Positions 2 through 1,095 of a stretch of 1,095 nt of DNA are shown piece after piece. The stretch comes from a phage, in the sequence record OR846380.1; one strand, written 5' to 3'. The position numbers and the translations under genes are program-made. The notes beneath the pieces were generated by a model. The model ran no database searches. It saw only the letters and a program-made list of their open reading frames with translations, and was not told the origin of the DNA. Within the stretch, counting starts at the first letter, position 1. Every line of letters starts with the position of its first letter.

Positions 2-349
2 TACAGTGACCACCCGTTCGCGCATGGCCGACCGGCGAAGGTGTTTAACCGTCGCGGTGAAAAATCCACGGCCTCCGGTCGCTATCAGCAGCTTTACCTG
101 TTCTGGCCGCATTACCGCAAACAGCTTGCCCTGCCGGATTTCAGTCCGTTGTCACAGGACAGACTCGCCATTCAGTTGATCCGCGAACGCGGTGCGCTGG
201 ATGACATCCGGGCGGGACGCATTGAGCGCGCCATTTCACGCTGTCGCAATATCTGGGCGTCCCTGCCGGGTGCCGGTTACGGTCAGCGTGAGCATTCACT
301 GGAAAAACTGGTCACCGTCTGGCGTACCGCTGGCGGCGTACCGGCTTAA
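2..349 (+). CDS. Phage endolysin, lambda R-family lytic transglycosylase, C-terminal portion (5'-partial; N-terminus lies upstream of the window)
   Basis: Seen in sequence: the frame beginning at position 2 is open from the window edge to TAA at 347-349. The GTG at 41 shown as M in the ORF track is internal, since the frame stays open upstream (YSDHPFAHGRPAK-VFNRR...). From memory, not a database search: the translation ...YSDHP...SGRYQQLYLFWPHYRKQLALPDFSPLSQD...IRERGALDDIRAGRIERAISRCRNIWASLPGAGYGQREH... aligns closely with the C-terminal half of phage lambda R (YSDHP...GAGRYQLLSRWWDAYRKQLGLKDFSPKSQD...IKERGALPMIDRGDIRQAIDRCSNIWASLPGAGYGQFEH), with the conserved blocks in the same order. The catalytic N-terminal region is not in the window. 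Confidence 0.9.
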   Translation, partial: YSDHPFAHGRPAKVFNRRGEKSTASGRYQQLYLFWPHYRKQLALPDFSPLSQDRLAIQLIRERGALDDIRAGRIERAISRCRNIWASLPGAGYGQREHSLEKLVTVWRTAGGVPA

Positions 350-363
350 ACGGAGTAAACACC

Positions 364-789
364 ATGAAGAAATTATCCCTTTCACTGATGCTGAACGTGT
401 CACTGGCGCTGATGCTGGCACTGTCCCTGATTTACCCGCAGAGCGTGGCCGTCAATTTTGTCGCTGCCTGGGCGATTCTGGCGACGGTTATCTGTGTGGT
501 TGCCAGTGGTGTCGGCGTGTATGCCACGGAGTATGTGCTGGAACGCTACGGACGGGAGCTGCCGCCGGAATCGCTGGCCGTGAAGATTGTCACGTCGCTG
601 TTTTTGCAGCCGGTGCCGTGGCGCAGACGGGCGGCGGCTCTGGTGGTGATGGTGGCGACGTTTATCTCGCTGGTTGCCGCCGGGTGGATTTTTACTGCGC
701 TGATTTACCTCGTGGCGTCGGTGTTCTTCCGGCTGATACGTACGGCCTGCCGTCAGCGTTTTGAGGGGCGGGAACTATGTCAAAGCTGA
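364..789 (+). CDS. Small polytopic inner-membrane protein, LysA-like lysis accessory protein (putative lysis-timing factor or antiholin); 141 aa
   Basis: Seen in sequence: ATG at 364 preceded by GGAG at 352-355 (8-nt spacer), TGA at 787-789, only 14 nt after the endolysin stop. Hydrophobicity pattern suggests 4 transmembrane segments: about residues 4-24, 28-53, and a 33-residue hydrophobic stretch (90-122) long enough for a helical hairpin. Basic residues sit at the N-terminus (MKK), in the central loop (ERYGRE...WRRR) and at the C-terminus (RLIRTACRQRFEGR), consistent with an N-in/C-in topology under the positive-inside rule. Established knowledge: P2 carries lysA, a multi-TMD protein affecting lysis timing, at this position between endolysin K and lysB. 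Alternative: a holin placed downstream of the endolysin cannot be excluded from this window. Confidence 0.8.
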   Translation: MKKLSLSLMLNVSLALMLALSLIYPQSVAVNFVAAWAILATVICVVASGVGVYATEYVLERYGRELPPESLAVKIVTSLFLQPVPWRRRAAALVVMVATFISLVAAGWIFTALIYLVASVFFRLIRTACRQRFEGRELCQS

Positions 790-1095
790 TGATTGTGATG
801 GTTGTGTTGTTATCGCTGGCGGTGGCGGCGCTGTTTCTGGTGAAACACAAAAACGCCAGCCTGCGCGCCTCGCTGGACAGGGCGAACAACGTCTCCAGCG
901 GGCAGCAGGCGACCATCACCATGCTGAAAAATCAGCTTCATGTTGCCCTCACCAGGGCAGACAAAAACGAGCTGGCGCAGGTTGCACTGCGTCAGGAACT
1001 GGAAAACGCCGCGAAGCGTGAAGCACAGCGCGAGAAAACCATCACGAGGTTACTCAATGAAAACGAAGATTTTCGCCGCTGGTACGGTGCTGACC
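777..1095 (+). CDS. Rz/LysB-like inner-membrane spanin subunit (i-spanin), 3'-partial; runs off the window end
   Basis: Seen in sequence: ATG at 777-779 preceded by GAGGGG at 763-768; open for 106 codons to the window edge, so absent from the stop-delimited ORF track. Translation: MSKLMIVMVVLLSLAVAALFLVKHKNASLRASLDRANNVSSGQQATITMLKNQLHVALTRADKNELAQVALRQELENAAKREAQREKTITRLLNENEDFRRWYGAD. It has a single N-terminal hydrophobic segment (about residues 4-22, a signal-anchor) followed by a charged, Ala/Gln/Glu/Arg-rich region typical of the periplasmic coiled-coil of Rz-type i-spanins. The start overlaps the upstream gene's last codons by 13 nt. In-frame ATGs also occur at 789 and 798, so the exact start is uncertain. 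Confidence 0.8.
   Translation, partial: MSKLMIVMVVLLSLAVAALFLVKHKNASLRASLDRANNVSSGQQATITMLKNQLHVALTRADKNELAQVALRQELENAAKREAQREKTITRLLNENEDFRRWYGAD
1057..1095 (+). CDS. Probable Rz1/LysC-like outer-membrane lipoprotein spanin (o-spanin), embedded in the +1 frame of the i-spanin gene; only the first 13 codons are in the window
   Basis: Seen in sequence: ATG at 1057-1059 in the +1 frame relative to the i-spanin, preceded by GAGG at 1046-1049 (7-nt spacer). Translation MKTKIFAAGTVLT has a basic n-region followed by the onset of a hydrophobic core, as in a lipoprotein signal peptide. The lipobox and mature Cys would lie beyond the window. Established knowledge: Rz1/LysC genes commonly begin inside the Rz/LysB gene in the +1 frame. 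Confidence is moderate because only 13 codons are visible. Confidence 0.5.
   Translation, partial: MKTKIFAAGTVLT

Follow-up and report, generated by a model that had tools for sequence, protein, structure and literature searches.

At the junction between the lysA and lysB genes of a P2-like prophage, the lysB reading frame offers three closely spaced ATG codons, at positions 777, 789 and 798, and the first of them lies inside the end of lysA. Which of these codons starts the LysB protein, and does translation of lysA contribute to that of lysB? We addressed these questions in a stretch of 1,095 nucleotides (sequence record OR846380.1), which as a whole is referred to as the window; positions are counted from its first letter.

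The lysis cassette and the lysA/lysB junction

Judged by homology, the window corresponds to a lysis cassette, K–lysA–lysB(–lysC), from a P2-like prophage of E. coli. E. coli chromosomes carry DNA 99.9% identical to it, P2-like phages share 96-98% DNA identity with it, and the cassette was found in about 1,559 of 5,426 complete E. coli genomes. K, LysA, LysB and LysC all gave family matches (PHROGs and NCBIfam). The gene order Y-K-lysA-lysB-lysC-R-S is annotated in P2, Wphi and the E. coli CV261 prophage, and in the same three the counterpart of 2..349 is annotated as K or endolysin. LysA scored 123.8 bits against NF038378 (cutoff 40), and the P2 record describes lysA as nonessential and affecting the timing of lysis. 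The three window proteins gave no significant match to the available copy of Pfam, a promoter scan of the window found none, and the one match from an Rfam scan of the window, P27 on the minus strand at 224-363, stayed below the gathering score (17.7 bits vs 50) and was put down to chance. Terminator-like matches in the window all lie within coding sequence and were judged compositional. A minus-strand open reading frame that spans the junction (692-922, 76 aa) was dismissed: nothing supports it, and the two genes to which it is antisense are well supported.

The lysB product is, from its family matches, the inner-membrane spanin (i-spanin) of the P2 LysB / Rz-like family. The phrog_89 match was obtained with the 106 LysB residues that the window encodes, whereas the TIGR03495 (phage_LysB) score of 171.6 bits (cutoff 92.75) comes from the full-length copy in locus L134, the DNA of which is 99.9% identical to the window. 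Inspection of the translation, together with the alignment, points to a single N-terminal transmembrane domain (TMD) or signal anchor. For the role of LysB at lysis, the remark cited from the P2 record is 'nonessential; affects timing of lysis'. The P2 and Wphi coordinates of lysC map onto 1046..1059, the initiation region listed in Table 1. The lysC product begins MKTKIFAAGTVLT..., followed by a lipoprotein signal; its signal peptide, MKTKIFAAGTVLTCLMLCAGC, terminates in the lipobox Cys, and the protein scored 124.7 bits against NF038368 (P2_Rz1; cutoff 27). Lambda Rz and Rz1 resemble LysB and LysC in kind, being an inner-membrane subunit with an N-terminal TMD and, from the +1 frame, a lipoprotein of the outer membrane (PMC6139136, PMC3091744), with no detectable sequence match reported; the whole of Rz1 lies inside Rz, whereas lysC overlaps lysB in part and runs past its end (PMC3091744).

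A sequence-only reading of the window had placed the i-spanin start at ATG 777, 13 nt inside the upstream gene, with an embedded Shine-Dalgarno sequence (SD) and with two further in-frame ATGs as possible starts. The coordinates of ATG 777, TGA 787-789, GAGGGG 763-768 and the ATGs at 789 and 798 are all exact, and the 13-nt overlap, the embedded SD and the identities of the genes agree with the curated annotation of P2, Wphi and RefSeq. ATG 777 stands 10 nt ahead of the first base (787) of the lysA stop. Because an in-frame TGA at 762-764 closes the lysB frame, which opens at 765, ATG 777 is the first possible lysB start. In P2 (NC_001895 / AF063097; lysA 7509-7934, lysB 7922-8347) the same genes stand in the same order with the same 13-nt overlap, and the junction carries TGAGGGG-N8-ATG and a UGAUG at codon 5, as in the window (DNA identity ~93.5-96.6%). 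The two differ by point differences only, namely R3 in P2 vs K3 in the window, L8 vs M8, and a LysA end of ..EPCQG vs ..ELCQS. Both the overlap and the start equivalent to 777 are thus already known from the P2 reference record, Wphi and RefSeq/PGAP; the finding is correct but ordinary, and its importance extends little beyond annotation hygiene.

Table 1. Features of the lysis cassette and of the lysA/lysB junction (window positions).
Feature	Position	Strand	Remarks
Gene K, 3' part (endolysin, P2 gpK homologue)	2..349	+	Stop TAA 347-349; phrog_90 endolysin, E 3.9e-49
lysA SD, GGAG	352..355	+	8 nt upstream of ATG 364; anti-SD duplex -6.1 kcal/mol
lysA, 141 aa; multi-TMD membrane protein, putative antiholin	364..789	+	Open reading frame; phrog_162, E 1.2e-68
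In-frame TGA closing the lysB frame upstream	762..764	+	Part of tTGAGGGG; invariant in 85/85 P2-clade loci
lysB SD, GAGGGG	763..768	+	Within lysA codons E134-G135; 8 nt before ATG; G-rich tract to 773
lysB (i-spanin) start codon, ATG	777..779	+	Annotated in P2, Wphi, RefSeq; invariant in 85/85 loci
lysA/lysB overlap, 13 nt	777..789	+	LysA L138(part)-C-Q-S-stop; LysB M1-S2-K3-L4-M5(first base)
lysB coding sequence, first 106 of 141 codons	777..1095	+	Runs off the window; phrog_89 Rz-like spanin, E 1.8e-36
LysB transmembrane segment, L4-V22	786..842	+	19 uncharged, mostly aliphatic residues between K3 and K23
lysA stop, TGA	787..789	+	Open reading frame; TGG in 1/85 loci (L084), then TGA one codon later
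In-frame ATG, LysB M5	789..791	+	A in common with lysA stop (UGAUG, cTGATGa); A present in 84/85 loci
In-frame ATG, LysB M8 (polymorphic TMD residue)	798..800	+	SD -0.6 kcal/mol
lysC (o-spanin) SD GAGGT 1046-1050 and ATG 1057	1046..1059	+	+1 frame within lysB; -6.6 kcal/mol

The start codon of lysB

The strength of the SD and the conservation of the start both single out ATG 777. Its anti-SD duplex of -8.0 kcal/mol is the best of any ATG in the window, a value reached by only 0.75% of all window positions, and the arrangement GAGGGG-N8-ATG occurs once vs 0.20 times expected in shuffled sequences. The corresponding energies are -4.3 kcal/mol for ATG 789, where the sole SD-like match (GGGA, 15 nt upstream) is mis-spaced, and -0.6 kcal/mol for ATG 798.

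The sequence-only reading had considered that homologues might consistently start downstream, with no conservation of ATG 777 and its SD. The opposite was found, as TGAGGGG and ATG 777 are unchanged in all 85 P2-clade loci, which represent 32 junction haplotypes. Two synonymous lysA sites inside the SD, 765 and 768, are also invariant in these loci. Only 1 of the last 12 third-codon positions of lysA (753-786) is polymorphic, vs 37% gene-wide (p ~0.03, binomial estimate). Where the overlap varies, LysB is left unchanged or receives a similar residue, whereas LysA is altered. At 782 the clades have A, C or G, all of which keep Ser in LysB but encode Gln, Pro or Arg in LysA; 784 A>G replaces K with R in LysB and S with G in LysA; and 785 G>A does not affect LysB but replaces S with N in LysA. 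Across the clades that contain lysA, an ATG or GTG start followed by Ser-Lys/Arg is conserved. One locus, L130, is without ATG 777 and looks degraded. The matches to TIGR03495 and phrog_89 start near residues 4-7 of LysB, so residues 1-5 are an extension specific to the clade. This comparison of start codons across homologous cassettes settles most of the ambiguity in favour of 777, and we infer that ATG 777 is the codon used in vivo.

The ATG at 798 is in frame and downstream of the lysA stop, so that a start there would avoid the overlap. However, the position is ATG in only 19 of the 85 P2-clade loci and CTG (Leu) in the other 66, including P2 itself, and for that reason ATG 798 is not a credible start. 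Initiation at 798, besides having the weakest SD of the three codons, would yield a protein whose hydrophobic segment is 15 residues long and lacks a basic residue on its N-terminal side. Conservation effectively refutes a start at M8, to which we assign next to no probability.

The position of ATG 789 is best seen in a family comparison, which covers all but a few divergent loci (e.g. L004, L007, L105, L122-126). Throughout the family, it is always one particular start codon that has both the strong SD and Lys/Arg at residue 2-3, and where that codon lies relative to a conserved His varies by clade. It lies 19 codons before the His ('MK..') in the 186, PSP3, Klebsiella and Kosakonia types, 23 codons before it ('MSK/MSR') in the P2 clade, and 24 codons before it ('V(fM)SR') in the EtG/Midge clade. 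The start position has shifted between clades, and as a rule for the family the LysB start is the codon that has both an SD and a Lys/Arg at residue 2-3. In phage 186 (P-orf27), PSP3 (orf10-orf11) and Klebsiella ST147-VIM1phi7.1, the homologous i-spanin start resembles that of the window: it overlaps the upstream stop, has its SD within the coding sequence of the preceding gene and is followed by a basic residue. Unlike the window, these phages have no lysA but the endolysin gene upstream, a 4-nt ATGA overlap, and an 'MK..' N-terminus with the start 19 codons before His24, where the window has M5. Lambda R and Rz overlap by ATGA as well. Erwinia phage EtG and Escherichia phage Midge are like the window in having a LysA-like gene upstream and an upstream start with a TGATG a few codons later; a GAGGGGG SD lies 7 nt ahead of that start, and Ser-Arg follows it. 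They differ in having GTG as the upstream start, an overlap of 19 nt and a LysB of about 50% identity. Annotation is divided here as well, with the downstream ATG chosen in EtG and the upstream start, together with a ribosome-binding site, in Midge. In this GTG clade, GTG-TCN-AGA is invariant, and the SD variants GAGGGGG, AGGGAGG and GAGGAGG change the LysA residues (EG, RE, EE) while the SD is kept or improved.

Lying 19 codons before His24, ATG 789 is the positional equivalent of the start codon in most LysB homologues, and it forms a 1-nt stop-start overlap with the lysA stop. It could accordingly be argued that ATG 789 is the sole true start, reached by termination-reinitiation, and that ATG 777 is a fortuitous in-frame ATG inside lysA. 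The family profiles, which start near M5, would fit such a start, and some gene callers do choose this codon (P0018, P0120 and others). However, homologues that start at -19 pair that codon with a strong SD (-5 to -11 kcal/mol) and Lys2, and in the window both are found at 777; no basic residue follows ATG 789. Moreover, codons 2-4 counted from 777 evolve as lysB-frame coding sequence, L094, L112 and L114 must use the upstream start, and the downstream calls trace to a bias of gene callers against overlaps, which is a known problem with spanins (PMC6139136). Three calls at the equivalent of M5 (P0029, P0100, P0120) were rejected as evidence for a downstream start, since two of the three retain the upstream ATG/GTG-Ser-Arg and SD and the third locus is degraded. 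We consider it very improbable that LysB starts at 789 only. M5 here most likely has no role beyond that of second TMD residue. Of the ambiguity raised by the sequence-only reading, what stands is that ATG 777 is favoured and that ATG 789 is a possible minor reinitiation site, while ATG 798 falls away.

Both codons might also be used, ATG 777 directed by its SD and ATG 789 by UGAUG reinitiation after lysA, to give isoforms beginning MSKLM... and MIVM..., which would differ by the sole N-terminal basic residue. The sequence M1-S-K-L-M5 has two nearby in-frame Met codons with a basic residue between them at the N-terminus of a lysis membrane protein, as do the dual-start holins (lambda S107/S105; phage 21 S71/S68; PMC9636201). 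In the holins both starts have been shown to be used and the products are antagonistic, whereas the second start of LysB is not conserved in the sister clade. The stop-start overlap, the A at 789 in 84 of the 85 loci, the location of 789 where most homologues start, and the TGATG or ATGATG that the EtG, Midge and P0100 clades mostly also retain after the upstream GTG are all consistent with dual initiation. Against it, 3 of 11 sister-clade junction types (L094, L112, L114) lack a downstream ATG, the P2-clade locus L084 has GTG in its place, no SD lies at a usable distance before 789, and an i-spanin isoform without the basic residue has no known role. The conservation of ATG 789 is itself confounded: the lysA stop ends with its A, and Met is a residue well suited to a TMD. 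The loci therefore do not present the pattern expected of a dual start, in which both starts are conserved and each has its own initiation signals. Searches of the literature found no ribosome profiling, initiation-site profiling or N-terminal proteomics on P2 LysB, and no report of dual starts in spanins by title or abstract. We regard the use of both codons as unlikely. Slightly less likely still is that LysB exists in two forms, a long one driven by the SD of ATG 777 and a short one made by reinitiation at UGA 787-789/AUG 789, which for want of the basic residue would insert or behave differently. If this were true, the ratio of spanin isoforms would be tied to translation of lysA (the antiholin), and the dual-start motif would occur in a spanin, not a holin.

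Translation of lysA and initiation of lysB

The junction lies in the late (O) operon, and we are confident, though short of certain, that LysB is made from ATG 777, probably with help from lysA translation. Ribosomes would be recruited by GAGGGG, which is written into the last lysA codons, and would initiate lysB at ATG 777. In the product, Met-Ser-Lys..., the Lys would be the single cytoplasmic basic residue next to the signal-anchor TMD (L4-V22), in which M5 and M8 are presumably ordinary residues. The ATG of M5 probably survives from the ancestral start position, still used by most homologues, and is retained in part because its A is the final base of the lysA stop. Ribosomes translating lysA traverse the lysB initiation region and terminate 10 nt beyond the ATG; since they read through this region, lysA translation probably helps lysB, either by unwinding local structure or by reinitiation after termination. 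Such coupling would keep the two membrane proteins LysA and LysB co-expressed. A published account of how a lambda-like lysis cassette is expressed appeals to termination-reinitiation ('back-translational coupling'), which it did not test directly (PMC10101115).

As in a coupled pair, the lysB start was found inside the end of lysA and its SD within the lysA coding sequence, and every LysB homologue examined overlaps the upstream stop, of K or LysA, by 1, 4, 13, 16 or 19 nt. Translational coupling of lysA and lysB, as proposed by the sequence-only reading, is plausible on these grounds, and lysB may depend to some degree on lysA translation.

The overlap could instead reflect tight packing of phage genes and have no regulatory role, with ribosomes initiating independently at 777 by virtue of its own SD, the strongest in the window. 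This explanation, which differs from the preferred one in the coupling step only, is a substantial but lesser possibility. Overlaps and near-abutments are usual across the P2 operon (1 nt for both L/X and Y/K, 8 nt for R/S), lysA is nonessential, and natural variants with lysA deleted circulate. The natural deletion is, however, in frame and retains the lysA start and terminal codons, so that translation still enters the lysB start; this is weak evidence, because one third of deletions are in frame by chance. It also speaks against independent initiation that the homologues all keep a stop-start overlap and never a spacer.

RNA structure bears on the question from both sides. The minimum-energy fold pairs the lysB SD and ATG, but with z = -1.0 vs shuffled sequences (96-nt and 161-nt stretches) there is no significant sequestering structure, in keeping with independent initiation. 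The probability of being unpaired is 0.34 for the lysB initiation region, within the window background of 0.39 +/- 0.12 (35th percentile), vs 0.65 for the lysA initiation region. The lysB region is thus less open than that of lysA, which sits in the 14-nt K-lysA spacer that, as read from the sequence, houses the lysA GGAG; this difference counts against independent initiation. A structure masking the lysB start was rejected as evidence for coupling, given a z of about -1.0 and an accessibility within background.

Annotation of spanin starts

Correct spanin N-termini matter because membrane targeting depends entirely on them. Gene callers that avoid overlaps often pick a downstream Met, which removes the basic residue of the signal anchor. 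The lysC start also seems to be miscalled in this way in some RefSeq genomes.

The lysis cassette and its lysA/lysB junction

Reading of the ORFs showed that the window carries four genes, which are listed below together with the elements of the junction. The window DNA is 96-98% identical to that of P2-like phages (P2, Wphi, fiAA91-ss, L-413C and others), E. coli chromosomal prophages match it at 99.9% identity, and the cassette was found in 1,559 of 5,426 complete E. coli genomes. Because of the family matches and these identities, the window is assigned to the Peduovirus lysis cassette, as its K–lysA–lysB–lysC portion.

Genes of the window and elements of the lysA/lysB junction
Feature	Position	Strand	Evidence or remark
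Endolysin gene, 3' part	ends TAA 347-349	+	phrog_90 (PHROGs)
lysA, 141-codon ORF	364-789	+	phrog_162 (PHROGs), NF038378 (NCBIfam)
TGA closing lysB frame	762-764	+	part of tTGAGGGG
SD GAGGGG	763-768	+	8 nt 5' of ATG 777, within lysA codons E134-G135
lysB ORF	opens 777, runs off window end	+	phrog_89 Rz-like spanin, E 1.8e-36; TIGR03495 phage_LysB
lysB start ATG	777-779	+	sequence
lysA stop TGA	787-789	+	sequence; overlap 13 nt
In-frame ATGs	789 (M5), 798 (M8)	+	sequence
lysC start codon	1057, +1 frame of lysB ORF	+	NF038368 P2_Rz1 (NCBIfam)

The positions of the lysB start, its Shine-Dalgarno sequence (SD), the lysA stop and the two downstream ATGs, as given in the sequence-only reading, all proved correct on re-reading. 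That reading had overlooked the TGA at 762-764, which closes the lysB frame and therefore makes 777 the earliest possible start, and the A common to the lysA stop and ATG 789 (cTGATGa), a textbook 1-nt stop-start overlap. The 13-nt overlap and the 777 start are also those of the P2 reference genome (lysA 7509-7934, lysB 7922-8347), Wphi (7510-7935, 7923-8348) and RefSeq/PGAP at an E. coli prophage locus, L134, with DNA 99.9% identical to the window (1264-1689, 1677-2102), all of which give a 141-aa LysB. The junction is thus the P2 lysA/lysB junction itself with few point differences, and is already known. Overlaps are usual in this operon (L/X 1 nt, Y/K 1 nt and R/S 8 nt in the P2 reference record).

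The G-rich SD noticed within the lysA coding sequence is genuine. It pairs with the 3' end of the 16S rRNA at -8.0 kcal/mol, the best energy among the 13 plus-strand ATGs of the window and a value reached by only 0.75% of window positions, and the SD-spacer-ATG pattern occurs once against 0.2 expected. The SD before 777 is not a chance match.

phrog_162 and RefSeq phage records carry the misleading label 'endolysin' for LysA, which is a membrane protein with several TMDs and a putative antiholin. RefSeq E. coli genomes with loci whose DNA is 99.9% identical to the window assign the K endolysin (window 2-349) either to GH24 or to GH104. These labels are annotation noise. Terminator-like matches (hairpin plus T-run) were in excess, 8 against 1.2 expected, for example at 804-833 (+) and 850-871 (-). 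We rejected them as real terminators, since all lie within coding sequence, most of them in the GGCGGTGGCGGCG-rich lysB segment encoding the TMD, and they are probably compositional.

Conservation of the LysB start within the P2 clade

We compared start conservation among 85 P2-clade loci with 32 distinct junction haplotypes. TGAGGGG (762-768) and ATG 777 were unchanged in all 85. The ATGs at 789 and 798 had been put forward as alternative starts; the first is conserved, with A in 84 of the 85 loci, whereas position 798 is A in only 19 and C (CTG, Leu) in 66, including P2, ATG being the minority allele. Initiation at 798 has almost no probability. The lone exception at 789 is L084, a viral contig in which the lysA stop TGA became TGG followed by TGA; LysA is longer by one Trp, and the same mutation changes LysB M5 to Val.

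If LysB started at 789, positions 780-788 would be constrained by LysA only, and the observed pattern is the opposite. Clades differ at position 782 (A, C or G), the third base of LysB codon 2; LysB keeps Ser, whereas the LysA residue is Gln, Pro or Arg. At 784, A>G causes S141G in LysA and the conservative K3R in LysB; at 785, G>A causes S141N in LysA and is silent in LysB. These changes, which represent few independent events, all point to the lysB frame as the translated, constrained frame from 777 on. We consider 789 as the sole start very unlikely, and LysB is most likely translated from ATG 777.

The lysA synonymous sites within the SD (765 and 768) did not vary among P2-clade loci, and only 1 of the final 12 lysA third-codon positions (753-786) was polymorphic, compared with 37% gene-wide (67 lysA haplotypes). 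This near-invariance (binomial p ~0.03, suggestive but not strong) suggests that the lysB SD, start and first codons impose an additional constraint.

LysB starts in the wider family and in databases

Loci were aligned on the invariant His24 of LysB, and candidate starts were tabulated with their SD energy and the stop of the upstream gene. In most homologues the start lies 19 codons 5' of His24, as in phages 186 and PSP3 and in prophages of Klebsiella, Kosakonia, Enterobacter, Yersinia and Citrobacter, irrespective of whether the upstream gene is an endolysin or LysA-like. This start overlaps the stop of the upstream gene as ATGA, lies behind an SD of -5 to -11 kcal/mol and has Lys as the next residue ('MK..'). 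ATG 789 is its positional equivalent in the window; there, however, the only SD-like match is GGGA 15 nt upstream (-4.3 kcal/mol) and M5 is followed by Ile. It is 777 that has the strong SD and the basic residue (M-S-K).

The same solution, with GTG in place of ATG, is found in a sister clade with a LysA-like gene (Erwinia phage EtG, Escherichia phage Midge and several Pantoea, Citrobacter, Kluyvera and Enterobacter prophages). An SD of -9.4 to -12.2 kcal/mol is followed after 7 nt by GTG-TCN-AGA (fMet-Ser-Arg), 22-24 codons 5' of His24. Three of the 11 junction types in this clade (L094, L112 and L114) have no downstream ATG before the TMD end, so the upstream start is obligatory there. This dispensability in relatives, and the missing SD at ATG 789, argue against a dual start in which ribosomes also reinitiate at UGAUG 789, a reading favored by the similarity of M-S-K-L-M to the holin dual-start motif (PMC9636201) and one we regard as improbable. 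A literal match to the lambda-S-like Met-Lys-Met motif occurs in L098, a Scandinavium MAG whose LysB homologue begins M-K-M, with two ATGs two codons apart (~1477-1485), both downstream of a -10.7 kcal/mol SD.

Whatever the start position, one feature is kept in all clades: the anchor is preceded by a single basic residue. As a modest new point, the LysB start has moved between clades, lying at codon -19 in some and at -23 or -24 in others, along with its SD and basic residue. The sister-clade SD variants GAGGGGG, AGGGAGG and GAGGAGG encode EG, RE and EE in LysA while the SD is retained or improved, a sign that selection acts on the ribosome-binding site and not on the LysA tail. The lysB ribosome-binding site appears, a second modest point, to be the main influence shaping the LysA C-terminal tail. 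The new points are comparative, and a phage-lysis specialist would not be surprised by them.

A third modest point is that LysB start calls are inconsistent across databases. Several database proteins start at the M5 equivalent, and we inspected the DNA of three. P0029, with a natural in-frame lysA deletion, keeps ATG-Ser-Arg upstream (M-S-R-M-T-M-T...) and is called at the third Met; P0100 has GTG-Ser-Arg-Leu-Met-Met behind a -9.4 kcal/mol SD and is called at the Met right after the lysA stop. ATG 777 is genuinely missing only from P0120, where small indels removed it; several genes at this locus are truncated, suggesting prophage decay or poor assembly. We therefore rejected such calls as evidence for a downstream start; they fit the warning that gene callers biased against overlaps misplace spanin starts (PMC6139136). 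Curated records disagree likewise: for EtG the downstream ATG is given as the start, whereas the Midge record uses the upstream GTG and annotates an RBS for it.

The o-spanin gene lysC (window 1046-1095; L134 1957-2247) starts at ATG 1057 in the +1 frame within lysB, with a GAGGT SD upstream. Its long form (MKTKIFAAGTVLTCLMLCAGC...) includes a proper lipoprotein signal, and residue 4 is where the alignment to the NF038368 model starts. RefSeq/PGAP starts lysC of E. coli CV261 45 nt later ('MLCAGC'), where the signal peptide would be lost; this start is probably mis-called.

Initiation and possible coupling at the overlap

SD-directed initiation at ATG 777, the best-supported mechanism, would give a LysB in which M-S-K precedes a hydrophobic anchor of 19 residues (L4-V22) and K-H-K follows it. 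From what is established about the targeting of membrane proteins, a basic residue is expected in the n-region of a signal anchor. A start at M5 would lose this residue, and a start at M8 would in addition cut the anchor to 15 residues.

Ribosomes terminating lysA would cross the lysB SD and ATG and stop 10 nt downstream. This passage, the stop-start overlap kept by all LysB homologues examined, and the lower predicted accessibility of the lysB initiation region (0.34 versus 0.65 for lysA) make functional coupling of lysB to lysA translation plausible, and we favor it slightly. Independent lysB initiation with an incidental overlap is a serious alternative for this step; predicted RNA structure at the lysB start did not differ significantly from shuffled sequence (z = -1.0). 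Our literature search found no experiment on lysA-lysB coupling; termination-reinitiation has been invoked, without direct test, to account for how a lambda-like lysis cassette is expressed (PMC10101115).

We also noticed a circulating P2-like variant with an in-frame internal lysA deletion (L127-L129, 12 contigs; mini-lysA 1391-1498, lysB 1486-1914). What is left of lysA is 14 codons at the 5' end and about 20 at the 3' end; its stop still lies over the lysB start region, and the SD reads GCGGGG instead of GAGGGG. The deletion agrees with lysA being nonessential, and the variant may be in line with a requirement that upstream translation reach the lysB start.
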